A stretch of 64,000 nucleotides of DNA from Candidatus Omnitrophota bacterium (GTDB lineage: Bacteria; Omnitrophota; Gorgyraeia; Gygaellales; Profunditerraquicolaceae), in contig JALOCB010000002.1 in NCBI GenBank assembly GCA_023227985.1, forward strand, positions 10,956 through 74,955, written 5' to 3'. Positions 15,123 to 47,008 of the stretch are shown here, piece by piece. A program made the position numbers and the translations under genes. How positions within the stretch are numbered: position 1 is the stretch's first letter; the number at the start of each line of letters is the position of its first letter. The notes beneath the pieces were generated by a model. The model made no database searches. It saw only the letters and a program-made list of their open reading frames with translations, and had not been told where the DNA came from.

Positions 15123-15586
15123 AAAACGCGCAGGTGAGGAAGGCGAATATAAAGGATATAAAGCAGATACAGGGGTTGATAAATTATTTTGCTAAGCATG
15201 ACCTGATGCTGCCCCGTTCGTTGAATGAGTTGTACGAGAATATACGGGATTTCTGGGTCATCGACCTCAAAGGAAAGATCCTGGGCTGCGCCGCGGTGCA
15301 TATATCCTGGGATGATCTGGTGGAGATCAAGTCGGTGGCAGTGGATAAGGATCACCATAAGAAAGGCCTGGGCTTGCTGCTTTTAGGCGAATGCTTAAAG
15401 GAATCAAGGTCCCTGGGAGCCAAAAGGGTGTTTGTCCTGACCTATGCCCCGGATTTTTTCCGCAAGGCCGGATTCCGCAAGATCGAGCATTCGGCGCTGC
15501 CGCATAAGATATGGGCCGAATGCATCAACTGCCCGAAATTCCCGGATTGCAAGGAGACCGCGCTTTTAAAAAATATTGCAAAATAG
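15119..15586 (+). CDS. GNAT family N-acetyltransferase (short N-acetylglutamate-synthase-like)
   Basis: 155 aa; acetyl-CoA-binding Q/RxxGxG/A-like segment HKKGLGLLLL and a C-terminal CxxCxxxxxC cluster; overlaps glgC stop. Confidence 0.55.
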   Translation: MKNAQVRKANIKDIKQIQGLINYFAKHDLMLPRSLNELYENIRDFWVIDLKGKILGCAAVHISWDDLVEIKSVAVDKDHHKKGLGLLLLGECLKESRSLGAKRVFVLTYAPDFFRKAGFRKIEHSALPHKIWAECINCPKFPDCKETALLKNIAK

Positions 15587-15663
15587 AACAGGTATAGTAT
15601 AATTAAGTGTTTTTATATCAAAAGTGTTATGGGGTTGGGATTTGAGGCGGTATTAATATGACT

Positions 15664-15808
15664 GACACCCGCGCAATGGCACCCGACTTTATTGGAATAA
15701 GTCGGTGTGTGCTCGGTAGCACAGAATATGTGCCGGTGTGGTATCTTGAAAAATAGACACCCGGACCAATCGGAATATGGTCCGGTGTCGCATAGGTATG
15801 CGAGGAGG
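15664..15808 (+). repeat. family A palindromic units (ACACCCGN...caatNggaat...NCCGGTGT) ending in GCATAGGTATGC hairpin + GAGGAGG SD upstream of the acyl-CoA dehydrogenase gene
   Basis: GACACCCGGACC-aatcggaatat-GGTCCGGTGTC then GCATaggtATGC, GAGGAGG, ATG 15814; related half-units further upstream. Confidence 0.65.
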
Positions 15809-15813
15809 TTTGA

Positions 15814-16968
15814 ATGTTGGATTATTTGTTGACTGATGAACAGAAAATGATCAAGGAACTGGCCCATAAGATCGCCGAGGAAAAGGTCAGGCCGGTGGCA
15901 GCAAAGCACGATAAAACCGAGGAATTCCCCTGGGAGATTTTGAAGGTTATCGGGGAATCCGATCTTTTCGGATTGTTCATTCCCGAGGAATACGGCGGGA
16001 TGGGCGTTAATGTGCTCAACCTTTGTCTGGCTACCGAAGAATTATCCCGCGCCTGCGGCGGCATCGCGGTCTGCTATGCGGCTTCGGCTTTGGGGACATT
16101 CCCGATAGTATTGTTCGGCAATGACGAGCAGAAAAAGAAATACCTGCCGGACCTGGCCAGGGGGACCAAGATAGCGGCATTCGGCCTTACTGAGCCTGAG
16201 GCGGGTTCAGATGCCGGCGCGATCAAGACCACTGCCAGAAAAGAAGGCGATCATTACGTATTGAACGGGACAAAGCATTTTATCACCAACGGCGGCGAGG
16301 CTCAGACTTATACCGTGGTGGCGATGACCAATAAGGCTAAAGGGGCTCGCGGGGCCAGCGCTTTTATCGTGGAAAAAGGGACTAAAGGATTTACCTTCGG
16401 CAAGAAAGAAGATAAGATGGGTATCCGCGCCTCGATCACCCAGGAACTGGTCTTTAACGAATGCAAGATTCCCAAAGAGAACCTGCTTTCCAAGGAAGGC
16501 ATGGGTTTTATCGTGACAATGAAAACATTCGATATGTCCCGCCCCGGCGTTGCGGCGCAGGCCTTAGGTATAGCGCAGGGCGCGATGGAGCTGGCGGTAA
16601 AGTATGCCAAGCAAAGGCACCAGTTCGGCAAATCCATCTCCAGTTTTCAGGGGATACAGTGGATGCTGGCGGATATGGCCACTGAGATAGAGGCGGCCAG
16701 GGCATTGGTTTATTCTTCGGCCAGGATGGTGGACGCCGGAGTAAAAGACGTGGGCAGCGCCTCGGCGATGGCCAAGCTTTACGCCTCGGACGTGGCTATG
16801 AGGGTGACTAACGACGCTATCCAGATATTCGGCGGGTACGGTTATATGAAGGATTATCCGATCGAAAAATATATGCGTGACGCGAAGATCACTCAGATAT
16901 ACGAGGGTACCAACCAGATCCAGCGCAATATCATCGGTCTGCAGTTGATAAAAGATCTGGCCAAGTGA
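15814..16968 (+). CDS. acyl-CoA dehydrogenase (butyryl-CoA dehydrogenase-like)
   Basis: 384 aa ACAD fold; GFGLTEPEAGSD, catalytic Glu near C-terminus (IYEGTNQIQR); followed by etfBA. Confidence 0.85.
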   Translation: MLDYLLTDEQKMIKELAHKIAEEKVRPVAAKHDKTEEFPWEILKVIGESDLFGLFIPEEYGGMGVNVLNLCLATEELSRACGGIAVCYAASALGTFPIVLFGNDEQKKKYLPDLARGTKIAAFGLTEPEAGSDAGAIKTTARKEGDHYVLNGTKHFITNGGEAQTYTVVAMTNKAKGARGASAFIVEKGTKGFTFGKKEDKMGIRASITQELVFNECKIPKENLLSKEGMGFIVTMKTFDMSRPGVAAQALGIAQGAMELAVKYAKQRHQFGKSISSFQGIQWMLADMATEIEAARALVYSSARMVDAGVKDVGSASAMAKLYASDVAMRVTNDAIQIFGGYGYMKDYPIEKYMRDAKITQIYEGTNQIQRNIIGLQLIKDLAK

Positions 16969-16981
16969 TCCAAGGAGGGTA

Positions 16982-17356
16982 ATGGATAACGTACCCGAAA
17001 GAAGGAAATTCACCAGGGCGCTTTTATTCGCGGAGATCATCTTTAAGCGCAGGAAAACGCCGGATGAACCCGGACAGGTTTCAATAACCCGGAATATCGG
17101 CCGGGGAGGGTTGTGCATTATTTCCAGTATCAAGCTGGATGACGGAGAGATATTGGACCTGAGCATATCACTGCCTCAGGAAGATAAAGCGATCGAGGTC
17201 GCCAGCAGGGTGGTCTGGGTAAAAGAGTATACAATAAGCGAGACTATACAGGCAAAAAGATATACTGTGGGGGTGGAGTTTTTTGGCGGCAGCGAGCTGG
17301 CGATGGAAAAGATCGACCGCTATATAGCCAGCCACAACAACCCGGGAAAATCATGA
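16982..17356 (+). CDS. PilZ domain protein (putative c-di-GMP receptor)
   Basis: 124 aa; RRKFTR (RxxxR) and NIGRGG (D/N-x-S/G-x-G-G) PilZ signature motifs; 4-nt ATGA overlap with etfB start. Confidence 0.65.
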   Translation: MDNVPERRKFTRALLFAEIIFKRRKTPDEPGQVSITRNIGRGGLCIISSIKLDDGEILDLSISLPQEDKAIEVASRVVWVKEYTISETIQAKRYTVGVEFFGGSELAMEKIDRYIASHNNPGKS

Positions 17357-18150
17357 ACATAATCATTTGCATCAAGCAGGTTCCGGAAACAACAGAGGTC
17401 AGGATCAATCCCCAGACCAATACCTTGATCCGTGACGGGGTCAAATCAATTATCAACCCTTTTGATATGTACGCCATCGAAGAAGGCGTGCGGCTTAAGG
17501 AGCGGTTCGGCGGAAAGATCGTGGTGGTAACTATGGGCCCGCCGCAGGCTGAAGCCGCTTTGCGCGAAGCCATATCTATGGGCTGCGACGAGGCTATTCT
17601 GGTATCCGACCGCGCGTTCGCAGGAAGCGATACCTGGGCTACCAGCTATACCTTATCCTGCGCCATAAAAAGGATCGCCAAAGAGGCCGGCGGCATGGAC
17701 CTGGTGATCTGCGGAAAGCAGGCGTCCGACGGTGACACGGCGCAGGTAGGGCCGGGGATCTCCACGCACCTGGACATCCCCCAGATAACCTATGTCAAGA
17801 AGATCGAAGAGATAAAAGAAAAAAAGGCGCGGGTGGAAAGAATGACCGAAGAAGGCTATGACGTAATGGAAGCCCCCCTCCCGGCATTATTTACGGTAGT
17901 CAAAGAGATCAATCAGCCGCGCATACCTTCTTTGAAAGGGATGATGAAGGCCAAATCCGCGAAGATTACCCATTGGACGGCCAAGGATATTGACGCGGAT
18001 CCCCAGAACCTGGGGCTTTCCGGATCGCCTACGAACGTGGTAAGGATATTCACTCCGCCGCAGCGCCAGGGCGGCCAGATGCTTGCCGGGGAGACTCCGG
18101 AAATTGTTGAGAAACTGGCGGGATTAATCAAAAGCGAGATAATAGGGTAA
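17353..18150 (+). CDS. etfB: electron transfer flavoprotein beta subunit
   Basis: 265 aa; MNIIICIKQVPET start and EtfB fold motifs. Confidence 0.85.
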   Translation: MNIIICIKQVPETTEVRINPQTNTLIRDGVKSIINPFDMYAIEEGVRLKERFGGKIVVVTMGPPQAEAALREAISMGCDEAILVSDRAFAGSDTWATSYTLSCAIKRIAKEAGGMDLVICGKQASDGDTAQVGPGISTHLDIPQITYVKKIEEIKEKKARVERMTEEGYDVMEAPLPALFTVVKEINQPRIPSLKGMMKAKSAKITHWTAKDIDADPQNLGLSGSPTNVVRIFTPPQRQGGQMLAGETPEIVEKLAGLIKSEIIG

Positions 18151-18159
18151 ATAAAAACT

Positions 18160-19362
18160 ATGGGAATCCAGATCATCGATGATAAGTGCGTGGGATGCGG
18201 TTTGTGCGTTAAGGCCTGCCCGTTCGGGGCCGTTACTTCCGTAAACAAGAAAGCGATTATCGACCTGCATAAATGCAATCTCTGCGGGGCGTGCGTGCCG
18301 GCCTGCAAGTTCAAGGCCATATTGCTGGAAAAGCCTCAGGCTGTCCAGGCCAAGAAAGACCTCAGCGTTTATAAAGGGGTATGGGTGTTTGCCGAGCAGA
18401 AAAAGGGCAAAGTCCAGTCGGTTTCTTTTGAGCTGGTAGGCAAGGCCAGGGAGTTGGCGCAGAAATTGAATACCAGCGTTTCGGCGGTTCTTTTAGGAAG
18501 CAATGTCGAGATGGGCGCGCAGGAATTGATCGCCGGCGGCGCGGATAATGTTTACCTGGTGGATTCCCCGGAGTTGGCAAATTTCCTGGATGAGCCGTAT
18601 ACCAACGTATTGGTGAAATTGATCCAGAAATACAAACCGGAGATCGTCTTAAGCGGGGCTACGATAATCGGCAGGTCGCTGATGTCCAGGATCGCCATTA
18701 AGATCGACGCCGGGCTTACCGCGGATTGCACCGGATTGGATATTGATCCGGACAGGAAACTGCTTTTGCAGACCAGGCCTGCTTTCGGCGGAAACATTAT
18801 GGCTACGATCATCAGCCCGAATCACCGGCCGCAGATGTCCACGGTAAGGCATAAGGTTTTTGTCCAGCCGGCATTAGAGAAGCAGAGAAAAGGCAAGGTT
18901 ATTAAAGAGTCATTCCCGATCTCGGAATTTTCTTCCCGGACCTCGCTCATCGATGTCATTGAGGAAGTGGAGAACCTGGTGAATTTATCCGAAGCGGATA
19001 TCATAGTTTCCGGAGGAAGGGCCCTGGGCGGCCCGGATAATTTTCAGATGTTAAGGGACCTGGCCCAGGTATTAGGCGCGGCAGTGGGCTCTTCGCGCGC
19101 GGCGGTGGATGCCGGATGGATACCATATTCCCATCAGGTCGGCCAGACCGGAAGGACCGTGGCCCCTAAGCTTTATTTCGCCTGCGGTATATCCGGACAG
19201 ATCCAGCATCTGGTAGGTATGCAGTCCTCCAAGGTGATCATTGCGATCAATAAAGATCCTGATGCGCCTATATTCAAAGTGGCTACGTATGGTATTGTGG
19301 GGGACATCTTCGAGATAGTGCCGGCTTTGACCAAAAAATTCAAGGAAGTCTTGAGAAAATAA
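18160..19362 (+). CDS. etfA: electron transfer flavoprotein alpha subunit with N-terminal 2x[4Fe-4S] ferredoxin domain
   Basis: 400 aa; two CxxCxxCxxxCP motifs (CVGCGLCVKACP, CNLCGACVPAC) followed by EtfA FAD-binding domain (SGQIQHLVGM). Confidence 0.85.
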   Translation: MGIQIIDDKCVGCGLCVKACPFGAVTSVNKKAIIDLHKCNLCGACVPACKFKAILLEKPQAVQAKKDLSVYKGVWVFAEQKKGKVQSVSFELVGKARELAQKLNTSVSAVLLGSNVEMGAQELIAGGADNVYLVDSPELANFLDEPYTNVLVKLIQKYKPEIVLSGATIIGRSLMSRIAIKIDAGLTADCTGLDIDPDRKLLLQTRPAFGGNIMATIISPNHRPQMSTVRHKVFVQPALEKQRKGKVIKESFPISEFSSRTSLIDVIEEVENLVNLSEADIIVSGGRALGGPDNFQMLRDLAQVLGAAVGSSRAAVDAGWIPYSHQVGQTGRTVAPKLYFACGISGQIQHLVGMQSSKVIIAINKDPDAPIFKVATYGIVGDIFEIVPALTKKFKEVLRK

Positions 19363-19521
19363 TCCCGTCTAACGCCTCAATCCTGTAAAACCCTTCATGT
19401 AGTGATCTGCACACCTTTGCATATTTTAGCATAATTATGTTCTGTTATAGCTAACTATGGCTATAATGTGTCCTTTAAGCTTCTGGTTGTATGTCTATGT
19501 TAAGATATGTAAATATTTTCC

Positions 19522-19550
19522 TTGACAAAAAACATCTTTTTCTTTATAAT
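19522..19550 (+). promoter_or_regulatory. sigma70-type promoter, exact consensus TTGACA-17-TATAAT, driving the small HTH gene (and possibly smc)
   Basis: TTGACA 19522-19527, 17-nt spacer, TATAAT 19545-19550, in an AT-rich spacer. Confidence 0.7.
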
Positions 19551-19577
19551 TGAAACAAGTAAGTTTTGTTTAAACGT

Positions 19578-19652
19578 GACACCCAACTTAATCGGCACCT
19601 TGCCTTAGGGTATAGGCAAGTATCCCGCTCTCTGCGGGAAAAAGTTGGTGTT
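19578..19652 (+). repeat. family A-type structured element in the 5' leader of the HTH gene
   Basis: Outer stem ACACCCAACTT/AAGTTGGTGTT enclosing AATCGG, CCTTGCC/GGCAAG and CCCGC-tctct-GCGGG hairpins. Confidence 0.55.
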
Positions 19653-19675
19653 AAGTCCGTACTTAAGGAAAACAT

Positions 19676-19852
19676 ATGTTCGCGAATGACCTGATGACAA
19701 TAGAAGACTTGGCAGCTTACCTTAAAGTAAGCCGCCGGACTATTTATGAATGGCTCAAGCAGAATAAGGTCCCGGCGTTAAAGATCGTCGGGCAATGGCG
19801 TTTTAAAAAAGATAAAATAGATTCATGGATGGAAGCGCAGGCCCATGCATAG
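19676..19852 (+). CDS. small helix-turn-helix DNA-binding protein (excisionase/MerR-like HTH_17 family)
   Basis: 58 aa below the ORF-track cutoff; LMTIEDLAAYLKVSRRTIYEWLKQNKVPALKIVGQWRF matches excisionase-family HTH; AAGGAA SD 7 nt upstream; exact consensus promoter upstream. Confidence 0.6.
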   Translation: MFANDLMTIEDLAAYLKVSRRTIYEWLKQNKVPALKIVGQWRFKKDKIDSWMEAQAHA

Positions 19853-19904
19853 ATCATATCCGGATAACGGAATACGCGTTTTTAATTTTAATTAGGGAGG
19901 GATA

Positions 19905-22900
19905 ATGTATTTTAAAAGATTAGAGATCGTAGGGTTCAAATCGTTTATGGATAAGACTGTTTTGAATTTTGAGCCCGGGGTGACCGCGGTGGTCGGCCCG
20001 AACGGCTGCGGAAAATCCAATATCTTCGACAGCATACGCTGGGTGCTGGGAGAGCAGTCTGCCAAATCCCTGCGCGGCTCGGCGATGGAAGACGTGATCT
20101 TCAACGGTACGGATACCAAGCCGGCGCTGGGTATGGCTGAGGTCAGCCTGACCTTTGACAATGAGCAGCGGCATTTTAATGTGGACCAGGATGAGGTGGT
20201 CATCACCCGCAGGATCTTCCGTTCCGGGGAAAGCGAATACCTGCTGAATAAAAATCTGGGCAGGTTGAAGGATATCCAGGACCTTCTTTTAGGCACGGGT
20301 ATCGGCGCGGAGAGCTATTCCATTATCGCCCAGGGAAAGATCGACCTGATCTTGAGCTCGCGCCCGGAAGACCGGCGCATGGTTTTTGATGAGGCGTCGG
20401 GGATCACCAGGTATAAATCCCAGAAAAGAGAGGCCTTGCGCAGGCTGGAAGAGACCGAACAAAATCTGCTCAGGCTTAATGATATTATAGTGGAAGTAAA
20501 ACGCTCTATCGGCTACCTGGAGAGGCAGGCGAACAAGGCCCGCAGGTTCCAGATCTGTTTTGATGAATTGAAAGCCAAGGAGATAAAGCTGGCCCTGGCG
20601 CAGAAGAAGAATTTGATACAAGAGATCTCCGGGATCACTATATATCTGGACAGCCTGCGTAACAGGGAAGAGGCGTTATTGGCCCAGATAAAAGCGGACG
20701 AGAACAACATTGGCCAGCGCAATATGGAATTGAAGGGGCTGGAGGCGGATCTCGCCAATATGAAGAACGCGATCATGAATTCCGAGAACCTCATCGAGCG
20801 CAACCGGCAGCATACCTCTTTTAACCACGAGCGGATCAAAGAGCTGGGCAATACCAAGACCTATCTTGAATCCCAGATACTGCAGACCCGGGAGCGCGTG
20901 GTTAAGGACGAGGAGAAGCTTAAAGGCCTCAAGGAAGAGCAGGAAGCCATCCGCAAGAGTTTTGAGGAGAAATCTCTGATCTTAAAGACCCATGAAGACA
21001 AGCTTAATGATCTGGTTGGCGGCATAAAGAGGTCTCATGACATTATCGCCCAGGACAAAAAGAACATTATGGACCTGGCTAATATGACCACCCAGGTGAA
21101 GAACGAGCTTACTGATTTTGCTTCCCGGGAACAGGTTTTTATCGCCAGGCAGAAAAGGCTGGACCTGGAAAAGGCCAAGATCGCCGAGGAAAGATCCCAG
21201 GTGGAGGGCAATCTCACGGAATTGGATAAAGAGTTGATGGCCGGCGAAAGCCTGCACCAGGAGCTTTGCGCCAGGATCGCGGCGGCCAAGGCTGAGCTGG
21301 ACGCGGAAACCCTGAAATTAAAACAGGCGGAAGAGGAATTAGAGACCCTGGAAAGGCAGAAGACCGGGCTTATATCGCAGAAGGAATTCTTGGAGAAGCT
21401 GAAGAGCCAGTACGAGGATATCAGCGAATCGATGAACGCGACGATCTATCTGGATAAGCTCCCGGCTGAGACTATCACCGGGCTGGTGGTAAAGCTTAAA
21501 GCCGTGCAGGGCGGCCCTGACCCGGTGAATAACGATCTGTCCGCCCAGGGATACAAAATGTCCGGCGAGGCCAAGCCTATCGACCTGGACGCGCAGAGGG
21601 TTAATGATAAGATTAAGGAGATCGAGGAAAAGATTTTAGGGTTGGCCGGGACTAAACTCCTTCTGGAAACCCGGATCAAGGAATTGACTGCTTCCAACCA
21701 GGCGCTCGATCAGCAGGAGCAGGACCAGGAAATGGCCCTGGCTAACAAGAAGACCGTGCACCACACGATCCTCGAGCAATTCAATAAGATCAAGGAAGAA
21801 GAGGAGCTTATTGCTTTGGAGCTGTCCGATGTCCTGGCGGAATTGAAGAGCCTGGAAGAAAAGATACTGGGACTTAAGGCCAGATTGGCCGGGTTGGAAA
21901 ATAAAGACCGGGAGTTGGAGGCTTCTATACACGCGGAGCAGGAAAGCATCAGCCATAATTCGCGGATAAAAGAAGAAGTCCTGGTGGAGATGACCCAGGT
22001 CAAGACCGTATTGGAGAATCTCGGCCAGCGCCTGAATTCCGAAGATGAAACTTTAAAGGCTTTGGAAGACGCCTGCCGCCAGGGTAACGAGGATATACAT
22101 AACCAGGAGAACAAGATCAAGGAAACTGTTTCCCGGCAGCAGGGTCTGGAAGAGGAGATTAAGAACCTGGACTCGGAGAATCTGGTGCTGGTAAAAGAAA
22201 TAGACGCTCAACGCAATACCCTTTCCGAAGCCGATAAGAAATACGCGGCGATGTCGGAGAGCGTGAACGGCATAATCTCCCGGATCGACGCCAAAAGAAA
22301 CGACCATGAGATATTAAAAGAGAATATTTATTCGGAACAGATGCGCCAGAAAGACATAGAGTTCAAATACCAGACCATAAAAGATAGGATGAACTCGGCA
22401 TATAAGATAGACCTGGACAGGCCGGAGACGATCAGTGCCGCGGATAGCGCTCTGCAAGTTGTGCCTGTTGAGCAAGCCCCTGTTTCCGCGGCTGCGCCGG
22501 AGGATAATAGCCGGGATCAGGCAGATGTCGTTTTTCCTGTTGTCACAGACCCGGTATTATTGTTAACCGGGCCGTCAGCGCCGCAGGAACCGGTAGAGGA
22601 AGAGGTGATTGATGAGGGGCTGTTGTCCGAGGAGATCGAAAAACTTAAAGAGCGCATTGATTCCTACGGCACGGTCAACCTGGTGGCTATAGCCGAATAC
22701 GATGAATTAAAGAAGCGTTATGATTTTCTGAATCAGCAGCAGGCTGATCTTGCCGGGGCTAAGGAATCGTTGCAGGAAGCGATCCGCAAGATCAACCATA
22801 CCACCAAGAAAATGTTTATGGAGACGTTCGAGAAAGTGCGCGAGGAATTCCGCAATTATTTCAAGATGCTCTTTAACGGGGGGGACGCGCAGGTTTACCT

Positions 22901-23303
22901 GATCGATGAGAATGATCCGCTGGAATCCGGCATAGAGTTGGTCTGCCGGCCTCCGGGGAAGAAGCTGCAGAATGTCCTGCTGCTTTCCGGCGGCGAAAAA
23001 TCGCTTTCGGCTATCGCGCTGATCTTCGCCATATTCAAGGTCAAGCCCGCGCCTTTCTGCATCCTTGACGAGATCGACGCCGCGCTGGATGAGTCCAACG
23101 TGGACCGCTTCAGCAGGATGTTCTCGGAATTCACCGGGACCTCGCAGTTCATAGTGATAACTCATAATAAAAGGACGATCGCCAATGCCAATGTAATGTA
23201 CGGTATTACTATGCAGGAATCCGGCGTGTCCAAGATAGTATCGGTTAAGTTCGCGGAATCAAAAACAAAGAGTGAACCCGCGCCCCAGCCAGTCGCCGCT
23301 TAG
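19905..23303 (+). CDS. smc: chromosome segregation protein SMC
   Basis: 1132 aa; N-terminal Walker A GPNGCGKSN, long coiled coils, hinge, C-terminal LSGGEKSL signature and Walker B ILDEIDAALD. Confidence 0.92.
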   Translation: MYFKRLEIVGFKSFMDKTVLNFEPGVTAVVGPNGCGKSNIFDSIRWVLGEQSAKSLRGSAMEDVIFNGTDTKPALGMAEVSLTFDNEQRHFNVDQDEVVITRRIFRSGESEYLLNKNLGRLKDIQDLLLGTGIGAESYSIIAQGKIDLILSSRPEDRRMVFDEASGITRYKSQKREALRRLEETEQNLLRLNDIIVEVKRSIGYLERQANKARRFQICFDELKAKEIKLALAQKKNLIQEISGITIYLDSLRNREEALLAQIKADENNIGQRNMELKGLEADLANMKNAIMNSENLIERNRQHTSFNHERIKELGNTKTYLESQILQTRERVVKDEEKLKGLKEEQEAIRKSFEEKSLILKTHEDKLNDLVGGIKRSHDIIAQDKKNIMDLANMTTQVKNELTDFASREQVFIARQKRLDLEKAKIAEERSQVEGNLTELDKELMAGESLHQELCARIAAAKAELDAETLKLKQAEEELETLERQKTGLISQKEFLEKLKSQYEDISESMNATIYLDKLPAETITGLVVKLKAVQGGPDPVNNDLSAQGYKMSGEAKPIDLDAQRVNDKIKEIEEKILGLAGTKLLLETRIKELTASNQALDQQEQDQEMALANKKTVHHTILEQFNKIKEEEELIALELSDVLAELKSLEEKILGLKARLAGLENKDRELEASIHAEQESISHNSRIKEEVLVEMTQVKTVLENLGQRLNSEDETLKALEDACRQGNEDIHNQENKIKETVSRQQGLEEEIKNLDSENLVLVKEIDAQRNTLSEADKKYAAMSESVNGIISRIDAKRNDHEILKENIYSEQMRQKDIEFKYQTIKDRMNSAYKIDLDRPETISAADSALQVVPVEQAPVSAAAPEDNSRDQADVVFPVVTDPVLLLTGPSAPQEPVEEEVIDEGLLSEEIEKLKERIDSYGTVNLVAIAEYDELKKRYDFLNQQQADLAGAKESLQEAIRKINHTTKKMFMETFEKVREEFRNYFKMLFNGGDAQVYLIDENDPLESGIELVCRPPGKKLQNVLLLSGGEKSLSAIALIFAIFKVKPAPFCILDEIDAALDESNVDRFSRMFSEFTGTSQFIVITHNKRTIANANVMYGITMQESGVSKIVSVKFAESKTKSEPAPQPVAA

Positions 23304-23304
23304 T

Positions 23305-23459
23305 AGGGGACGGTTCCTGCGATCATTATTCATTGCGGCGTAATAAGTTGCAATAAGGCATTTGTCAAGTCCGCAGGAAATGATTTACAATAAATTTGTC
23401 AATAGGCTTGTTGTAATTCGTTGGAGGGTAGTTAGTTAGAGCAAGAGGAACCGTCCCCT
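23305..23459 (+). repeat. family C element: 155 bp bounded by 14-15 bp TIR (T)AGGGGACGGTTCCT / AGGAACCGTCCCCT, between smc and the convergent GGDEF gene
   Basis: Perfect inverted repeat seen directly; internal near-direct repeat TTGCAATAAGGCATTTGTCAA / TTACAATAAATTTGTCAAT. Confidence 0.7.
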
Positions 23460-23464
23460 TTGTT

Positions 23465-24664
23465 TTAGCCGCAGGTGTTGTTCTTGCCTTTTTTCTTCGC
23501 TTCGTAGAGCGCTTTGTCTGAATAAGATCCGAGTTCCGCGGCAGTGTTGCCGTTCTCCGGGAATGTGGCCAGCCCAAGGCTGGTAGTGATGGTCTTTTGG
23601 GGAAGGTTCTCCTGATGGATGAAGGGGTGCTTGGCGATATTCTCCCTGAACCTCTCGGCGATCATAAACGCCTCTTTTTTATCGGTATAAGGCAGGATGA
23701 TCGCGAATTCTTCTCCGCCATAACGGCAGACATAATCCATTTTTCTGGATTGATTCTTGAGCAGGTTGGCCATTTCTTTGAGGATATGATCGCCGGCCTG
23801 GTGGCCGAAGGTGTCGTTGTATACCTTGAAATCGTCGATATCCAGCATAAGCAGGCTGAACTGGGTGGATGTGGCTTTGCTTTTTTCCACTTCCACGCCC
23901 AGCAGGTATTGGAAGTACCCGTGGTTCCAAAGGTTGGTCAGGGAGTCCAGGTGCACCCGGATAACGGTCTTTTCATATAACTGGGAATTTTCGATAGCCA
24001 GGCCTGCCTGGTTGGCGAGCATTCGCAGCATCCGCAGCTCGTCTTTGCCGATAGGTTTATGGGTGATGAAATTATCCGCCATAATGATACCGTTGACCTT
24101 GTCTTTGGCTTTCAGCGGGACCAGGACCACTTCGTCGGACTTAAGGATCTGTATGACCGGGTCATTCCGGTAGTTCTGAATGGTCTCCTGGGTCAGGTGC
24201 AAAGGCATTCCTTCCGTCACGCATAAAGAAAGAAGGTTGTTTTTTTGTTCGCTTAACGGCATTTTGATCAACTGGACCTGTTGGCTAAAACCGGATTTTG
24301 GGGTATTATCCGATACCTTGTAGGCGTTGATCAGGTCTTCCATATCCATTTTTTCCTGTTCGACATAGTTCCAGACCCGGTTGGCTTCTTCCCCTGATTC
24401 CGGGCCGATCGCGGTTTTTCCCTCAATGATATTTTCTTTTTCGTTGACCAGGAAGAGGACCGCCCGGTTGAATCCCAGGCCGATGTGTGCGGTTACCCCG
24501 GTAAGGATGATGTAAAGGATCTCATCCAGTTTGAGGGTGGTGCGCATAGCGTTGGAGATCTCGTAAAGGATCGTCAGCTCGGATTTTGTGCGTTCCAATT
24601 CCTGCTTTATTTTGGCTAATTCGTCCATTGGTTTAAATTTAACACAATTTTGCCTGGCTGTCAA
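23465..24664 (-). CDS. diguanylate cyclase, coiled-coil + GAF + GGDEF domains
   Basis: 399 aa; GGEEF active site (RYGGEEFAI), upstream GAF-like region; only sizeable minus-strand gene in the window. Confidence 0.85.
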   Translation of the reverse strand: MTARQNCVKFKPMDELAKIKQELERTKSELTILYEISNAMRTTLKLDEILYIILTGVTAHIGLGFNRAVLFLVNEKENIIEGKTAIGPESGEEANRVWNYVEQEKMDMEDLINAYKVSDNTPKSGFSQQVQLIKMPLSEQKNNLLSLCVTEGMPLHLTQETIQNYRNDPVIQILKSDEVVLVPLKAKDKVNGIIMADNFITHKPIGKDELRMLRMLANQAGLAIENSQLYEKTVIRVHLDSLTNLWNHGYFQYLLGVEVEKSKATSTQFSLLMLDIDDFKVYNDTFGHQAGDHILKEMANLLKNQSRKMDYVCRYGGEEFAIILPYTDKKEAFMIAERFRENIAKHPFIHQENLPQKTITTSLGLATFPENGNTAAELGSYSDKALYEAKKKGKNNTCG

Positions 24665-24689
24665 CCTAAGCTGAAATATGTTAGAAATC

Positions 24690-24982
24690 CCGGTAAATTA
24701 CGTCTATTATATATAGAGAACCAATCCAATTGGAGGCATTGGAATGCAGGATTATCGGCACCCAACCTAAATCATCCGCCATATAAGAATGGCGGGTGTG
24801 TCGCTATTTACGCCAGGAAAGGTTGGTGTCGCAACCGTATGTTAAACCCGATCTTATTGGCGCCTGCCATTTTTGGATATGGCAGCATACGCTTTTGCGT
24901 TAATAGATCGGTGTTGCATCCGTATATTACACCCGATCTTATTGGATAGATCGGTGTTGCATCCGTATGCAAGGGGGGGGGT
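24690..24982 (+). repeat. cluster of family A palindromic units in the divergent GGDEF/recA intergenic region, ending in TGCATCCGTATGCAAGG + G9 tract
   Basis: CCGCCATATAAGAATGGCGG palindrome; two copies of AGATCGGTGTTGCATCCGTAT and CACCCGATCTTATTGG; G-homopolymer 24973-24981. Confidence 0.6.
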
Positions 24983-24992
24983 GATTATTTGT

Positions 24993-25021
24993 TTGACAGC
25001 CAGACGGCTGTGGGATATAAT
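24993..25021 (+). promoter_or_regulatory. recA promoter, exact consensus TTGACA-17-TATAAT, with palindrome CAGCCAGACGGCTG in the spacer (candidate operator)
   Basis: TTGACA 24993-24998, TATAAT 25016-25021; inverted repeat CAGCC-agac-GGCTG between them. Confidence 0.7.
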
Positions 25022-25068
25022 ATTTTCTCTAAAACTATATAAAATACGCTACGTAAATGGAGGCAGGA

Positions 25069-26127
25069 ATGGCAAAAGACCCGAAATCCGGCACTAAAGA
25101 TGAAGAAGCTGTTTTGAATGATAAAAAGGAGCTTTCCGACCGTCAAAAAGCCCTGGAATTGGCGCTTTCGCATATTGAAAAGCAGTTTGGCAAAGGCTCG
25201 ATAATGAAATTAGGCGGTAAGATCAAGATTGATGTCGAGGTCATTCCCACCGGCGCGCTTACTTTGGATTCCGCTTTGGGCGTAGGCGGTTTTCCCCGGG
25301 GCAGGGTCATTGAAATATTCGGCCCCGAGGCCTCAGGTAAAACTACTCTTACTTTGACCGCCATAAGGGAGATCCAGAAAAAAGGCGGGGTCGCCGCTTT
25401 TATTGACGCGGAACACGCCTTTGATTCTACTTACGCTAAAAAAATAGGCCTGAACCTGGATGACCTGCTTATTTCACAGCCGGATACCGGTGAGCAGGCT
25501 TTAGAGATCACCGAGACCCTGGTCCGTTCCAACGCGGTTGACCTGGTCGTGGTTGATTCAGTCGCGGCTTTGACGCCCCGGGCTGAGATCGAAGGTGAAA
25601 TGGGCGATTCGCATATGGGCCTGCAGGCCAGGCTTATGTCCCAGGCTATGCGTAAATTGACCAGCGCGATCAGCAAATCCCGGACCAGCGTTATCTTTAT
25701 CAATCAGATCCGCGAGAAGATCGGGGTGATGTTCGGCAATCCCGAAACTACTCCCGGCGGCAGGGCTTTGAAATTCTATTGTTCGGTCAGGCTGGATGTG
25801 CGCAGGATCGCTTCGCTTAAGGCCGCGGATAATACGGTTTTTGGCGGCAGGGTCAGGGTTAAAGTGGTCAAGAATAAAGTCGCTCCGCCGTTCAGAGAGG
25901 CGGAGTTCGATATACTGCATGATGAAGGAATTTCCAAGGCGGGAAGCGTAATCGACGCCGGTCTGAAATTAGAGTTACTGCAGAAATCCGGGACATGGAT
26001 ATCTTTCCAGGACCAGAAGCTCGGCCAGGGCAGGGACGCTGCGGTTAAGACTTTGAAGGAACAGCCGAAACTGCAGGACAGCATTGAGAAAGAGATCAGG
26101 AAGAAGATCACCGCGGGATTGGGATAA
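25069..26127 (+). CDS. recA: recombinase RecA
   Basis: Walker [11 protein letters not shown]1/L2 loops; start set at ATG 25069 with GGAGG SD (the ORF-track start at 25057 is 4 codons further upstream). Confidence 0.95.
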
Positions 26128-26175
26128 GGGAAGGGTGTTGTGTAACTTGTTGCCACCCTGCGCAGATCGGTTTTG

Positions 26176-26297
26176 CGCCGGTGTTGACTAGGTAGTCACA
26201 CCCAATTTGATTGGTAAGGTTGGTGTTGGGCAAGTAATGCACACCCGGCGCCAATGGGAATTGCGCCGGTGTTGCATTCGTATGCAAGGAGGGTTGG
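26176..26297 (+). repeat. family A palindromic units ending in TGCATTCGTATGCA hairpin + AGGAGGgttGGAGG SD directly upstream of htrA
   Basis: CACACCCGGCGC-caatgggaatt-GCGCCGGTGTTG then GCATtcgtATGCAAGGAGGG, ATG 26301; additional ACACCCAA...TTGGTGTTG unit upstream. Confidence 0.65.
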
Positions 26298-26300
26298 AGG

Positions 26301-27854
26301 ATGAAAGCGAAGAGGTTGGGATGGGCTTTAATGACTTTATCTGTTGGTCTGGTCATCGGGTTGTGCATTGCCGCGGGGTTGAACATGCCGCAAAAGGCGC
26401 ACAGCCAGGCTGCGAAGCAGGATCGGGTCGTTAGCCTGCAGCCGCAGACAGTCCCTTCTTTGGATGGTTCGCGCATGGAAGACGCAATCATTAACGTCGC
26501 CGGCACAGTCGGCAAGGCTGTGGTCTCCATAACGGCGGAGCACATTACTAAGTTCCCCGGGACGACCAGAAGGTTTTATTTCCGCAGCCCGGAGGGCGGC
26601 GATAAACCATCTTTCGGAGAGGATGACCCTTTCAGCAAGTTCTTCGACGAATTTTTCGGTGAGATGCCGGAAAGGGAATACCGCCAGGCCGGTGTTGGGT
26701 CAGGGGTGATCGTCGATCACCGCGGATATATCCTGACCAATCAGCATGTTATCGCCGACGCGGACAAGCTTAGCATAGTCCTTCCTGACGGCCGGGAATT
26801 CAAAGGTGAGGTAACCGGGCAGGACAGCCGTTCAGACCTGGCGATCGTCAAGATCGACGCGGCTAATTTGCCTGTAGCTGTTATGGGGGATTCCGACAGC
26901 CTCAGGATCGGGCAATGGGTAGTAGCTATCGGAAATCCTTTTGGTTTTTCGATGCAGAATCCCGAGCCCACTGTGACTACCGGCGTGATCAGCGCCCTGC
27001 ACCGGACCTTGGGCAGGACTTTGTCCCGCAGCCGGGATTATAATGACCTTATTCAGACCGACGCGGCGATAAACCCGGGTAATTCCGGTGGCCCGTTGGT
27101 CAATCTTAAAGGCGAGATTGTGGGGATCAACGTCGCCATATTTTCCACCTCCGGCGGCAGCCAGGGCATAGGTTTTGCCATACCTTCAAATAACGCCAAA
27201 CGGATCGTCTCCCTGTTGATCGAAGGCAAGAAGGTGAAGTACGGGTGGCTGGGCATCGCGGTGCAGGATCTGACCGAAGACCTGGTTAAATATTTTAAAT
27301 TGGCCGACAAGAACGGCGCTATGGCGATCAAGGTGCTCAAGGGCAGCCCCGCGGAAAAGGCCGGGATAAAGGCCAATGACGTGATCCGGCAGTTCGACAA
27401 TACGCGGATCAATACGGTCAAAGAGCTGTTAAGCGCGGTGAATAAGGCGGAAGTGGGTAAGAAGGTCAAGGTTGCCTTGATCCGCGATAAAAAAGATATG
27501 ACCCTGGATATTATCGTTGAAGAGCGGCCTGCGGATCAGGATGACGCTGAGCCGGGAACCGCCGAACAGGTTAAGCCGGGAAGCTGGAGAGGCATGGATA
27601 TCGCCGAGCTTGATTCCGCTTCCGGCAAAAGGTTTAGGTTAAGGGACAGCGAAGGCGTGGTAGTTACGAATGTCGAGCCGAACAGCCCGGCGGATGACGC
27701 GGGGATCGTACCCGGGGATGTTATCCTGGAAGTTAATGAACAGCCGGTGAGCAACAGCGCCGATTTTAAGAAGGCGGTCCAGGGGCTGAAAGGCGCGGTG
27801 TTGGTTTCCTTGAACCGCGGCTACTTGATCATCAAAGAAAAAAGTGAGAAATAG
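26301..27854 (+). CDS. htrA: periplasmic serine endoprotease DegP/HtrA (trypsin domain + 2 PDZ)
   Basis: 517 aa; N-terminal membrane anchor, catalytic His/Asp/Ser (GNSGGPL), two PDZ domains. Confidence 0.85.
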   Translation: MKAKRLGWALMTLSVGLVIGLCIAAGLNMPQKAHSQAAKQDRVVSLQPQTVPSLDGSRMEDAIINVAGTVGKAVVSITAEHITKFPGTTRRFYFRSPEGGDKPSFGEDDPFSKFFDEFFGEMPEREYRQAGVGSGVIVDHRGYILTNQHVIADADKLSIVLPDGREFKGEVTGQDSRSDLAIVKIDAANLPVAVMGDSDSLRIGQWVVAIGNPFGFSMQNPEPTVTTGVISALHRTLGRTLSRSRDYNDLIQTDAAINPGNSGGPLVNLKGEIVGINVAIFSTSGGSQGIGFAIPSNNAKRIVSLLIEGKKVKYGWLGIAVQDLTEDLVKYFKLADKNGAMAIKVLKGSPAEKAGIKANDVIRQFDNTRINTVKELLSAVNKAEVGKKVKVALIRDKKDMTLDIIVEERPADQDDAEPGTAEQVKPGSWRGMDIAELDSASGKRFRLRDSEGVVVTNVEPNSPADDAGIVPGDVILEVNEQPVSNSADFKKAVQGLKGAVLVSLNRGYLIIKEKSEK

Positions 27855-44969: not shown

Positions 44970-45344
44970 ATGATAAAATTCCTTTATTTGATCGTTGGCG
45001 GCGCAGTAGGCACGGTGGCGCGTTATTTTTTATCCGGTCTTGTTTACCGGATCGCCGGCGCGGCTTTCCCTTATGGCACATTAGTAGTTAACCTGGTTGG
45101 ATGTTTTATAATCGGTTTTCTGGTCTCGATCTCCGATAATAAGTTCATGCTGGGCACCAACGCTAAATTATTACTGATGATCGGTTTCTGCGGCGCGTTC
45201 ACCACGTTTTCGGCATTGATCATGGAAACTAACGGTTTGATCAAAGACGGGGAAAGCCTCAGGGCTTTTATGAACGTGTTGGTCAGCGTGGTATTCGGTT
45301 TTATCGTATTCCGGCTGGGTGTTCTATTAGGCGAAGCTATATAA
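44970..45344 (+). CDS. crcB: fluoride ion channel CrcB/Fluc
   Basis: 124 aa four-TM protein with GxxGxxxTFSxF-like signature (GFCGAFTTFSALI). Confidence 0.8.
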   Translation: MIKFLYLIVGGAVGTVARYFLSGLVYRIAGAAFPYGTLVVNLVGCFIIGFLVSISDNKFMLGTNAKLLLMIGFCGAFTTFSALIMETNGLIKDGESLRAFMNVLVSVVFGFIVFRLGVLLGEAI

Positions 45345-45363
45345 ATTAAAATAGGGAGGCGTT

Positions 45364-45693
45364 ATGAAACTTCCGGCTGAAGGAAAATTACTTAGGATAT
45401 TCATCGGTGAAGCGGATAAATGGCAGGGCAAGCCTCTTTATGAGGAGATAATCTTTCTGGCGAAGCAAAATGGAATGGCAGGAGCGACCGCTATTAAAGG
45501 CTTTATGGGGTTCGGCTGCAAAAGCCATATGCATACAGCCAAGATAATGCGGCTTTCCGAGGACCTGCCCATAATAATAGAGATCGTGGACAGTGAAGAG
45601 AAGATCTCCGCGTTTATTCCCAGTTTGGATGAAATGGTTAAGGAAGGCTTGATCACCCTGGAAAAAGCTAACGTGATAATGTACCGCGCTTGA
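45364..45693 (+). CDS. DUF190 (PII-like) protein, CrcB-associated
   Basis: 109 aa; LRIFIGEADKWQGKPLYEEI... typical DUF190, frequently adjacent to crcB. Confidence 0.7.
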   Translation: MKLPAEGKLLRIFIGEADKWQGKPLYEEIIFLAKQNGMAGATAIKGFMGFGCKSHMHTAKIMRLSEDLPIIIEIVDSEEKISAFIPSLDEMVKEGLITLEKANVIMYRA

Positions 45694-45712
45694 TTTTACG
45701 TTAATCGAGGCG

Positions 45713-45885
45713 TTAAGTCAGTGAGGACTGTGTCAGTCGCTCGAACAGTCCTCGACCTTCCGGCCTGCACCCGGGCGTATGGCACCTCGCCATATAGGAG
45801 TGGCGAGTATGTCGCTTTCTGCGTCAGAACGTCCGGTGTGGCCCTGTGGCCAACGAAACTCGCTTTGTGACACAGCCCGCACTGC
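45713..45885 (+). repeat. family B MITE-like element (long copy, ~173 bp) with a nested family A-like insert, followed by a T-run; DUF190-SPFH spacer
   Basis: TTAAGTCAGTGAGGACTGTGTCA...TGACACAGCCCGCACTG; internal CACCCGGGCGTATGGCACCTCGCCATATAGGAGTGGCGA resembles family A units. Confidence 0.7.
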
Positions 45886-46016: not shown

Positions 46017-46820
46017 ATGGAACAGCGGGATACAATTAATTTTGCGATAAATTGGTTGATCAAAACCGGGGTCTTTGTCGTGGCTTTAGTAATCTTCTTT
46101 GGAAGTTTTTATGTAATAGGCGTCGGCCAGGTAGGCGTAATATTTAATCAGGCTACGGGGCAGACTAAATCGGTTCAATCGGGGTTCAACTTGAAAATGC
46201 CGGTCATTGAACAGCTCAGTGTATTTGATATCAGAACGCAGCGGATCGATATAGTGGAAGATTGCGCTTCCAAAGATCTGCAGCTGGTTAGGATGAAAAC
46301 CGTAATAAACTACCATCTTGATTATACCAAAGTAAATGAAATATTCACAAAAGTAGGCAGGGATTATACGGATAAGATCATCATCCCTATAACCAATGAG
46401 ATCGCCAAGTCTTTAGTATCTCAATACACTGTGGAGAATATTATTGTAAAGCGCGCGGAATTGAAAGATGCTATTGAAGTGGCCTTGCGTGTAAAATTAG
46501 GCGAGTATTTTATCGTAATCGAGAGTGTTAATTTAGTGAATGTGGATTTCACCCCGGAATTCAACCGGATAGTTGAGGCGAAACAGATCGAAGAGCAGAA
46601 GATCAAAACAGCTGAGTATAAGAAGATGCAGGCCGCTCAAAACAAAGAAGCGGTTATTTTAGAAGCCGAGGGGGAATCCAAACGGCAGGAATTGATCAAG
46701 GCAACGGTTAATCCGCAGATCGTTTCTTTGGAATGGATCAAAAAATGGGATGGCAAGCTCCCGGTCACTATGTTAGGGGATAAAACAGTAATGATGGTTA
46801 ATCAGGATGAAAACAAATAA
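46017..46820 (+). CDS. SPFH/band 7 (prohibitin-like) membrane protein
   Basis: 267 aa; N-terminal TM, SPFH core (GQVGVIFN...), C-terminal coiled-coil; own promoter-like site and AGGAGG SD. Confidence 0.75.
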   Translation: MEQRDTINFAINWLIKTGVFVVALVIFFGSFYVIGVGQVGVIFNQATGQTKSVQSGFNLKMPVIEQLSVFDIRTQRIDIVEDCASKDLQLVRMKTVINYHLDYTKVNEIFTKVGRDYTDKIIIPITNEIAKSLVSQYTVENIIVKRAELKDAIEVALRVKLGEYFIVIESVNLVNVDFTPEFNRIVEAKQIEEQKIKTAEYKKMQAAQNKEAVILEAEGESKRQELIKATVNPQIVSLEWIKKWDGKLPVTMLGDKTVMMVNQDENK

Positions 46821-46874: not shown

Positions 46875-46923
46875 TTACTGATTTTGCGGGTCCTGGCCTG
46901 CCGGCAGGCAGGCTGTCGAGCCG

Positions 46924-47008
46924 TTAAGTTAGTGAGGCCTGTGTCAGTCGCTCGGACAGTCCTCGGCCTTTGGCCTGCGGAACTCGCTTTGTGACACAGC
47001 CCTCACAT
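46924..47008 (+). repeat. family B MITE-like element (short ~85 bp copy), just upstream of the HicAB islet
   Basis: TTAAGTTAGTGAGGCCTGTGTCAGTCGCTCGGACAGTCCTCGGCC...GGAACTCGCTTTGTGACACAGCCCTCAC; matches the ends and core of the 45713 copy, lacks its middle segment. Confidence 0.7.

Follow-up and report, generated by a model that had tools for sequence, protein, structure and literature searches.

The 64,000-nt stretch of contig JALOCB010000002.1 of a Candidatus Omnitrophota bacterium analysed here (referred to as the window; all coordinates are given within it unless a locus is named) harbours a family of short two-hairpin repeats, located at intergenic sites upstream of genes such as those for an acyl-CoA dehydrogenase (acd), RecA and a Do/HtrA protease (htrA). 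The family is rather likely to represent a new lineage-specific interspersed hairpin repeat, probably mobile, which is placed beside GGA motifs and transcribed in mRNA leaders. Its unusual features are a self-nesting that is specific to the hairpin loop and the docking of units beside ribosome-binding sites. The loci analysed make up ~0.5 Mb (534 kb) of partly redundant sequence with no complete genome. Comparisons involved the species of the window (W), two further lineages, R (HtrA 84% identical) and G (to which the 1.87-Mb contig Ga0209340_1000001 belongs), and outgroups in which HtrA is 62-65%, Acd 88% or ComFB 91% identical. The HtrA, Acd and ComFB homologues are labelled Candidatus Omnitrophota/Omnitrophica by their sources, and the metagenome-assembled genomes (MAGs) GCA_028711865.1 and GCA_041653715.1, as well as one ENA assembly, contain contigs identical to the window in this region.

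An earlier note on this DNA had described a repeated module before acd, htrA and recA, and the module is indeed present at all three loci, with its exact limits slightly shifted. The acd copy occupies positions 15757-15808 of the plus strand (ACACCCGGACC-AATCGGAATAT-GGTCCGGTGT-C-GCAT-AGGT-ATGC-G-AGGAGG; ATG at 15814), the htrA copy positions 26241-26292 (+; ATG at 26301) and the recA copy positions 24929-24981 (+), the latter lying upstream of the recA promoter and having its AGGAGG degraded to A-G9. As had been noted, AGGAGG is found 5 nt (acd) and 8 nt (htrA) before the ATG, while the recA copy ends 11 nt before the -35 hexamer of a perfect TTGACA-17-TATAAT promoter. The stems, said to vary between copies and to remain complementary, do so (GGACC/GGTCC, GGCGC/GCGCC, GATCT/AGATC), with ~17 different stems over the related genomes, and the Y...R pair around GCAT-N4-ATGC covaries as well (C-G or T-A), forming a fifth base pair of the second hairpin. 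The pattern CACCC-N10-40-CGGTGT yields 6 matches in the window, all on the plus strand, against 0.31 expected (0/100 shuffles attain 6), and the pattern of the second hairpin, GGTGTYGCATNNNNATGC, yields 5 matches with up to 2 mismatches against 0.73 expected. A stem-aware scan, in which complementary arms were needed, led to the identification of 11 units on the plus strand (shuffle mean 1.6) and of no true unit on the minus strand, where a single unrelated match was obtained. The 11 units form five intergenic sites of the same orientation, and those at 15665-15739, 19579-19665, 24758-24928 (two units), 26134-26240 (two units and a fragment) and 45767-45839 had been overlooked previously.

The unit is ~43-48 nt long and is composed of two hairpins. 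Hairpin 1 (28-31 nt) consists of ACACC[C]G, a variable stem, the loop A-T-N-G-G-A, the complementary stem and CGGTGT; ACACC pairs with GGTGT at its base, the 5-bp middle stem differs from copy to copy, and a bulged C on the 5' side is invariant (20/20 units). The loop, which has the consensus (A/T)AT-N-GGA(A)TA(T) and comes in two lengths (short, TATTGGATA; long, AATNGGAATAT), is the best-conserved part of the unit (A14 in 19/20, T15 in 18/20, G18 in 20/20 and A19 in 17/20); GGA is present in most loops, several others containing TTTGA, CGGT or TGGT instead. Hairpin 2 follows directly, has 4-5 bp and an NNGT loop, and exists as Y-GCAU-NNGU-AUGC-R in the units abutting a Shine-Dalgarno sequence (SD), as CCGCC-YYGU-GGCGG in nested units and in a degenerate, AU-rich form in internal array units. 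It is perfect in all 7 SD-adjacent units (35/35 cells paired), compared with 41/65 paired cells elsewhere.

The claim that the hairpin, not the mere sequence, is under selection proved to be correct. In the alignment of 20 distinct units made by hand, 91% of cells are paired versus 72% in shuffled and 24-45% in slid alignments; helix 1 is 98.5% paired, and 10/15 pairs change on both sides. The 31 distinct units aligned with the covariance model (CM) R1 show 93% of cells paired (72% shuffled, 28-39% slid) and a covariation score of 0.60 versus 0.23 (0/500 shuffles), in an alignment that is biased towards structure, being fitted to that model. The mismatches of helix 1 are 9 G·T wobbles, A·C being absent, and hence the written plus strand is the folding strand. 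Covariation among paralogous repeat copies is, however, insufficient on its own to prove a function at the RNA level.

Units occur singly, in tandem (head-to-tail) or nested in the loop of another unit. Three kinds of nested sequences can be told apart: A2, which are full units with a CCGCC-type hairpin 2; B, in which C(G/A)CC is followed by a hairpin whose loop is of the same kind, by (G)YAT and by a small T-loop hairpin; and C, a third form found in relatives only. In nearly every case the insertion point is the GG(A) of the host loop, the junctions being AATCG^GAATAT for A2 and ..TTGG^ATA or ..TCGG^AA for B, and the inserts disrupt the host loop but supply a new loop of the same type. All CM matches with E < 0.01 within arrays lie on the same strand, head-to-tail, AU-rich linkers separate the stable hairpins, and neighbouring units are clearly products of tandem duplication. 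Such a duplication is seen in another W assembly (L003), where the 85-nt block 24844-24928 is present in one extra copy.

The acd leader contains an outer unit at 15665-15739 (+; ACACCCGCGC-AATGG ... GAATAT-GTGCCGGTGT), the loop of which is split by a nested A2 unit at 15680-15723 (+). The latter is placed between two G of the outer loop (AATGG^GAATAT), comprises hairpin 1 CACCCGACTT-TATTGGAATA-AAGTCGGTGT and hairpin 2 GTGCT-CGGT-AGCAC followed by A, is matched by the CM with 57.4 bits (E = 3e-11) and has a near-identical nested copy in locus L013. The terminal unit at 15757-15802 (+; hairpin 1 at 15757-15788, hairpin 2 C-GCAT-AGGT-ATGC-G at 15789-15802; CM match of 59 bits) is followed by the AGGAGG SD of acd at 15803-15808 (+), which is native and lies outside the repeat. 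In the minimum free energy (MFE) fold the acd leader RNA adopts the nested three-way structure as predicted; hairpin 2 closes directly 5' of AGGAGG, and the SD (GAGGAGG) is unpaired in both the MFE and the centroid folds. Because a promoter-like site (15576-15603, +; TTGCAA-16-TATAAT, 10/12 matches) is located upstream, the acd array is considered to lie within the acd 5' untranslated region (5'UTR). R and G retain the -10 block GTATAGTATAATTAAGTG, and outgroup L037 shares the TATAAT hexamer. This leader contains two units in W (one nested), three in R (one nested) and none in G and the outgroup, where the -10 hexamer of the promoter and the native GGAGG are retained without units. No insert interrupts the unit ACACCCGGACC...GGTCCGGTGT in W; in its R ortholog a clean 44-nt A2 insertion lies at G^G of the loop AATCG^GAATAT.

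In the case of the 58-aa HTH_17 gene, the leader unit (19579-19665, +; ACACCCAACTT-AATCGG^[type-B insert 19596-19639]^AAA-AAGTTGGTGT; CM match of 38.6 bits) holds a subtype-B insert of 44 nt in its loop. Its hairpin 2, TAAGT-CCGT-ACTTA, abuts the SD AGGA at 19666-19669 (ATG at 19676), and a perfect TTGACA-17-TATAAT promoter (19522-19550, +; 12/12 matches) places the unit downstream, in the 5'UTR. Three states of this unit are found at one loop position: it is uninterrupted in the R assemblies L035 and L036, it has an A2 insert in L034 (R) and L032 (G), and it has a B insert in W. In the outgroups L021 and L037 there is no unit, and the leader runs directly into AAGGA.

Upstream of recA three units follow one another. 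The first (24758-24843, +; GCACCCAACCT...AGGTTGGTGT) contains a degenerate nested unit in its loop and a degenerate hairpin 2, CGCAACCGTATGTT, and its R ortholog is uninterrupted (ACAC(C/T)CAACCT-AATTGGATA-GGTTGGTGT). The second (24844-24928, +; AAACCCGATCT-TATTGG^[type-B insert 24861-24902]^ATA-GATCGGTGT) likewise ends with a degenerate hairpin 2, and the terminal unit (24929-24971, +) is uninterrupted, with hairpin 1 at 24929-24957, hairpin 2 T-GCAT-CCGT-ATGC-A at 24958-24971 and a CM match of 61.9 bits. It is followed by the A-G9 tract (24972-24981, +), a decayed AGGAGGGG, at the position of which species R has GCGAGGAGGGG. R possesses two uninterrupted units in this region; in W both are split by inserts and a further copy is present, and in G the order is permuted. 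The homopolymer at 24973-24981 differs in length, L003 (GCA_028711865.1) having G10 where the window and two assemblies have G9, which may reflect either a phase-variable-like tract or a sequencing artefact. The array is preceded by an additional hairpin, CAATCC-TATTGGGA-GGATTG (24722-24757), which is kept in R and G; in the window its loop has an extra ~14 nt holding the hairpin-2-like GCAT-TGGA-ATGC. The perfect TTGACA-17-TATAAT promoter of recA (24993-25021, +) lies outside the repeat. Between its hexamers there is a perfect inverted repeat, ACAGCC-AGAC-GGCTGT, kept in W, R and G and absent from L019; it is a putative operator for a LexA-like repressor and does not belong to the repeat family.

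The recA-htrA spacer is filled completely by units (26134-26286): a 3' fragment (GGTGT and linker) at 26134-26152 and units at 26153-26197 and 26198-26240 form the upstream part of the array (26134-26240, +), the last of these containing two T·G wobble pairs, and the terminal htrA unit (26241-26286, +; hairpin 1 at 26241-26272, hairpin 2 T-GCAT-TCGT-ATGC-A at 26273-26286; CM match of 56.4 bits) abuts the SD AGGAGG at 26287-26292. The fold of the htrA leader has z = -1.5, with alternative pairings between repeats dominating. This 173-nt array of W compares with a spacer of 15 nt in R, TAA-TAAGAGGGGTTTGTT-ATG. The genes flanking the units here, htrA being followed by those for RecX and AlaRS, are named as in the earlier note; htrA lies between recA and recX in W, R and the outgroups, and in G recA is followed by recX directly, with a short spacer and no htrA (L032 20347-20362, compared with window 26128-27854).

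The fifth site is found near a Band_7 gene, where a hairpin-1 unit (45767-45839, +; GCACCCGGGCGT-ATGG^[type-B insert ~45783-45825]^AGA-ACGTCCGGTGT) is not next to an SD; upstream of that gene, it splits copy 1 of an unrelated element bounded by terminal inverted repeats, and the paralogous second copy of this host element, at 46916-47006, is intact and without the family unit. The host element is itself a repeat of ~90 nt with 15-bp terminal inverted repeats, GTGAGGNCTGTGTCA ... TGACACAGCCCNCAC, its two direct copies (45705-45882 and 46916-47006) flanking the Band_7/SPFH gene (46017-46820); none was found in the 38 other loci compared.

Outside the window, the comFB spacer contains a 336-nt array in R and a large array of its own in G, as opposed to 48 nt in the relative with 91% ComFB identity, and the leuD-leuB spacer has a unit in G only. 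Judging from the sequence comparison, this pattern of gain, loss and insertion is that of an actively proliferating and recombining repeat and not of a conserved regulatory site.

Other hairpins of these genomes are found in similar positions. G and R share an unrelated hairpin-rich element of ~100 nt that lies between the acd stop codon and the SD of the PilZ gene (L032 11156-11269, L034 5958-6070) and is absent from the window (16969-16981) and the outgroup, and L019 has yet other nested hairpins in the recA-htrA spacer and the HTH_17 leader. Because of these two cases, hairpin insertions abutting the SD seem to be a general habit in this Omnitrophota clade.

The suggestion of the earlier note that the element supplies the ribosome-binding site had to be rejected. 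Empty orthologous sites already hold a GGAGG-type motif, and hence the SD is native and not borne by the element; the motif was present at all the empty sites checked (acd, htrA, comFB, HTH_17, recA), the element being found just 5' of it. The element-free acd site reads AAATCGGAGGATGAATG in G and TTTAAGGAGGATTGTATG in outgroup L037, the 48-nt comFB spacer of the outgroup, which is devoid of units, has its own AGGAGG (CACAGGAGGTACTGCAATG), and the HTH_17 outgroups without a unit show TTAAGGAAAAG and CAAAGGAGTTTC (motif AAGGAAAA). The empty htrA site of R is AAGAGGGG (motif GAGGGG), and the counterpart of the AGGAGGGG upstream of recA is AAGGAGGGGTAATATTTGTTTGACA in the element-free L019. In 7/9 sites the last unit ends directly at a pre-existing GGAGG or GGAA, which is usually the SD of the gene itself.

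Every copy is in the sense orientation with respect to the downstream gene and is located in a 5'UTR, an intercistronic spacer or a promoter-upstream region. The downstream genes are a mixed set (acd, the HTH_17 gene, recA, htrA, the Band_7 gene, comFB, a Lrp/AsnC-like gene and leuB), units being found before unrelated genes in other contigs and species and dispersed over five sites within 30 kb in the window. On the 1.87-Mb contig, the copies L010 (+) and L013 (-) are 515 kb apart and each follows the direction of its own gene. No promoter or terminator was predicted in the recA-htrA spacer, and the recA array may be transcribed from a weak upstream site at 24682-24710 (9/12 matches).

CM matches were confined to species W, R and G, with none in the outgroup loci. 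A scan of metagenomes revealed true family members in two further lineages besides W; 5 of the 11 metagenome matches (L005, L006, L009 and L011, which are four copies of one sequence, and L015) are without the unit architecture and were set aside as chance. Among 185,579 representative genomes, a collection which does not include the host species, the pattern ACACCCG-N12-32-CGGTGTYGCATNNNNATGC had no true match, the single match obtained being located within a gammaproteobacterial coding region and judged to be due to chance. The scan of viral contigs gave 0 matches. Neither did Rfam give any match at gathering thresholds over the whole 64 kb, and in E-value mode the best sub-threshold match over 15400-26500 was a spurious mir-278 (E = 0.16). 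Extension of the window locus downstream (L030) revealed no units.

The weight of these observations differs for the explanations that may be put forward. Chance similarity or a trivial local segmental duplication is practically negligible as a cause: adjacent array units are clearly tandem duplicates, but the units occupy five separate sites of the window within 30 kb as well as sites before unrelated genes elsewhere, contain ~17 different compensated stems and are strongly enriched over shuffles, and the dispersed copies in other genomes refute the trivial origin that had been named as a possible objection. That the arrays serve as DNA operators, bound by the transcription factor of a stress or SOS-type regulon, is extremely improbable; an operator for a stress regulon was among the earlier proposals. 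The conserved half-sites ACACC/GGTGT do form a palindrome, and one array is located just upstream of the recA promoter; however, the sequence separating the half-sites stays complementary through compensatory changes, for which a dimeric operator has no need, the bulged C and the restriction of mismatches to G·T are strand-specific, and most copies are found off promoters, either downstream of them or between cistrons. Moreover, the downstream genes are mixed, orthologous promoters are without the site (the htrA array is absent in R, the relative with 84% HtrA identity, the acd array in G and all arrays in the outgroups), and the recA promoter has a separate inverted repeat between its hexamers. 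A translational-control hairpin, another of the earlier proposals, such as an RNA thermometer or a riboswitch-like leader occluding or exposing the SD of stress genes, is very improbable as well. In favour of it, the SD directly follows the last hairpin before acd, htrA, comFB, HTH_17 and the Lrp/AsnC-like gene, and two of the tagged genes, htrA and recA, are involved in stress. Against it, both the MFE and the centroid fold of the acd leader have the SD unpaired and there is no anti-SD segment; the hairpins are simple, with no conserved core resembling a ligand pocket, the copy number varies from strain to strain, the element is missing from the same genes in close relatives, and Rfam gave no match.

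More can be said for a cis-regulatory RNA cassette, in which the GGA of the loops and of the SD would together offer several sites to an RNA-binding protein, CsrA/RsmA-like or otherwise loop-specific, that governs the translation or stability of the tagged mRNAs, and the spread of the repeat would rewire genes into that post-transcriptional circuit; it is nevertheless regarded as unlikely. The loop is the most conserved part of the unit and contains GGA in most cases, nested inserts restore a loop of the same type, all copies are in the sense orientation in transcribed leaders, and the terminal hairpin 2 is perfect solely beside the SD. In the acd leader the loop GGA is ~30 nt from the SD GGA, a spacing that falls in the range bridgeable by a CsrA dimer, and another conserved hairpin, with the loop TATTGGGA, precedes the recA array. 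On the other hand, the loops depart from the A(N)GGA / ACA-GGA-UG consensus, several of them being without GGA, and no Rfam match, of CsrB/Rsm type or other, was obtained. The arrays are not conserved at orthologous genes of close relatives, the gene set is without a functional theme, and the recA array is located upstream of the main promoter. A csrA gene was not found by tblastn in the 534 kb, which is weak evidence in incomplete genomes, and a search of the literature on Omnitrophota with CsrA or palindromic repeats retrieved nothing relevant.

In the case of a mobile hairpin repeat, the units would spread by site-preferring insertion beside GGA motifs exposed in single-stranded loops or leaders. 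Recognition would probably take place on the folded single strand in an HUH-type-like manner, with the bulged hairpin and the conserved flank as the substrate, and arrays would then grow and be shuffled through tandem duplication and recombination. As the units land in 5'UTRs and intercistronic spacers, their transcripts would carry stable hairpins in the leader without occluding the SD. Should expression be influenced, for example by protection of the 5' end, by processing or stabilisation of the mRNA or by insulation of the ribosome-binding site, this would be a by-product or a secondary co-option and not the signal of a dedicated regulon. It has been shown that TnpA-REP requires a bulged imperfect palindrome after a conserved motif on single-stranded DNA (PMC8266576), and, by analogy, hairpin integrity and a conserved bulge, foot and loop are what single-strand hairpin-recognising enzymes demand of REPs. 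The species-restricted BOX, RUP and SPRITE repeats have been judged parasitic, yet they are co-transcribed and structured (PMC3049150); restriction to few lineages, variable tandem modules and co-transcription with neighbours may be taken as parallels to them.

Several observations weigh against a mobile repeat. No transposase or mobilising gene was detected among the window proteins scanned, the material being ~0.5 Mb of partly redundant sequence with no complete genome, and no clean or consistent target-site duplication was evident in five filled-versus-empty comparisons. The strict co-orientation with the downstream gene, the restriction of a perfect hairpin 2 to SD-adjacent units and the compensatory differences between orthologous copies, namely AACTT/AAGTT (W) versus AACGC/GCGTT (G) in HTH_17 and T-A versus C-G in the recA hairpin 2, would fit selection for an RNA function as well, and transcription is confounded with replication-strand orientation, as nearly all genes are co-oriented and the GC skew is uniformly positive. 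Furthermore, 2/9 top-level sites are not GGA-adjacent (window 45767, L032 4490), and where an intercistronic spacer is very short, a unit can hardly lie anywhere but next to the SD. Only the 5'UTR cases (acd and HTH_17; ~25-40 nt) and the long recA-upstream region argue for targeting; such unforced adjacency, together with the insertions at GG(A) of the loops, suggests a preference for GGA contexts.

A more far-reaching possibility, which is rather improbable, combines mobility with control: the units would be non-autonomous mobile cassettes homing to exposed GGA, both in their own loops and in ribosome-binding sites, by an undescribed recognition of single-strand (DNA or RNA) hairpins, each insertion installing a protein-binding GGA hairpin before an SD, and a selfish repeat would thereby rewire CsrA-like control in Omnitrophota. 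Small interspersed palindromic repeats are known mainly from cultured Proteobacteria and Firmicutes; Omnitrophota, to which the present family belongs, are an uncultured phylum. If the GGA-adjacent placement of the family described here is a true target preference, it implies an undescribed mobilisation mechanism and a natural route by which leader structure, and possibly post-transcriptional control, is reshuffled among close relatives; if the placement is merely a tolerated parasitic habit, the family adds a useful, though unremarkable, entry to the known repeats of bacteria. The arrays account for variable intergenic lengths and for likely assembly or strain heterogeneity in these MAGs, and could serve as strain markers.

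Some further features of the window deserve mention. The gene for phosphoglycerate kinase is split into two open reading frames (ORFs), 48779-49315 and 49348-49962, corresponding to Pfam PGK positions 1-158 and 185-379, as a result of either a frameshift, a pseudogene or an assembly error. An 86-aa ORF (47206-47466), HicA-toxin-like from its sequence, precedes a gene for a HicB-domain antitoxin (47494-48006), the pair being located at 44-48 kb, where the GC content is lower. Genes for a fluoride channel (crcB) and a DUF190 protein lie at 44970-45693, and Rfam gave no match for a fluoride riboswitch upstream of them. There are no tRNAs in the window.

Among the known systems, the REP and BIME repeats offer the closest comparison. 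The earlier note had considered a REP/BIME-like mobile unit that delivers expression signals; what stands of this proposal is an interspersed, lineage-restricted unit that is gained and lost, varies in tandem number and nests in itself; what does not stand is the delivery of the SD, and the defining features of REP/BIME are not found. In common with these imperfect palindromes of 20-40 bp, which are extragenic, present in many copies and clustered into mosaics, the family has a hairpin 1 of 28-31 nt and 11 units per 64 kb, all of them intergenic; it also shares a stem with a conserved bulge and a flanking conserved motif, which is the type of substrate recognised by TnpA-REP (PMC8266576). REPs are probably transcribed as RNA hairpins (PMC3733652), as the units described here would be. 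However, the unpaired GTAG/CGTC tag of REPs (PMC3733652) is absent from the 20 aligned units, in which the ends ACACC/GGTGT are base-paired. Instead of the inverted dimers typical of REP, BIME and REPIN, only head-to-tail units occur here, and they are located upstream of start codons, while REPs are mostly found downstream of genes or between convergent genes (PMC3733652). The second small hairpin per unit and the nesting in loops are further differences. A REP-like GTA(N) tag in the linkers was considered and dropped, since it does not adjoin the stem and the first units of arrays are not preceded by it. There was no sign of a RAYT gene, and no transposase domain was detected among the window proteins scanned.

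Pneumococcal BOX elements (boxA-boxB(n)-boxC) resemble the family in being modular, with a tandem internal module of ~45 nt, strain-dependent copy number and confinement to one species group (PMC3049150); they too are structured when co-transcribed and are read as parasitic with side-effects on expression (PMC3049150). There is, however, no sequence relationship; BOX has A and C end-modules that form terminal inverted repeats, whereas the arrays described here consist of one unit type, have no distinct end-modules of this kind and start with left ends that lack a conserved module, the terminal unit being set apart by nothing but its intact hairpin 2. BOX is not systematically in the sense orientation or SD-adjacent and is over-represented between convergent genes (PMC3049150), and loop-specific self-nesting is no feature of it. 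The MITE-like ERIC and Correia/NEMIS elements are likewise located in transcribed intergenic DNA, where their RNA hairpins may give rise to RNase E or RNase III sites or may stabilise or destabilise the flanking mRNA (PMC3049150). In contrast to the family, these elements are 100-150 bp long, with long terminal inverted repeats, and occur in either orientation; the unit described here is three times smaller, and neither target-site duplications nor terminal inverted repeats are evident, unless the two arms of hairpin 1 are taken as the latter. Correia elements target TA. MITEs are derived from an insertion sequence (IS), and no parent IS of the family is known.

The mycobacterial interspersed repetitive units (MIRUs) are direct tandem repeats of 40-100 bp that lie between the cistrons of operons, follow the direction of transcription and differ in number from strain to strain. 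The family agrees with them in its direct tandem units in intercistronic spacers, in the orientation with transcription and in strain-dependent numbers; MIRUs, though, are not hairpin units, and they carry short ORFs which overlap the flanking stop and start codons (translational coupling), and coupling ORFs of this kind were rejected for the recA-htrA and GNAT-acd spacers, which contain none. The CsrA/RsmA sites and the CsrB/RsmZ sponges share with the units the repeated short hairpins with GGA in the loop and GGA in the SD. The loops differ, however, being (A/T)AT-N-GGA as compared with A(N)GGA, the elements are gained and lost like mobile DNA, and no csrA gene could be linked to them. As to the nesting, IS1397 and ISKpn1 enter REP loops at a fixed position, and IS200/IS605 insert 3' of a short single-stranded target; a strand-specific orientation and subterminal bulged hairpins as recognition elements are further points of resemblance to such insertions. 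These are, however, full insertion sequences encoding their own transposases, whereas the nested units are non-coding pieces of 42-44 nt belonging to the same family, for which we know of no enzyme. To our knowledge, the combination of strictly sense, head-to-tail units with insertion at the same position of the loop and docking 5' of a native ribosome-binding site has not been reported before.

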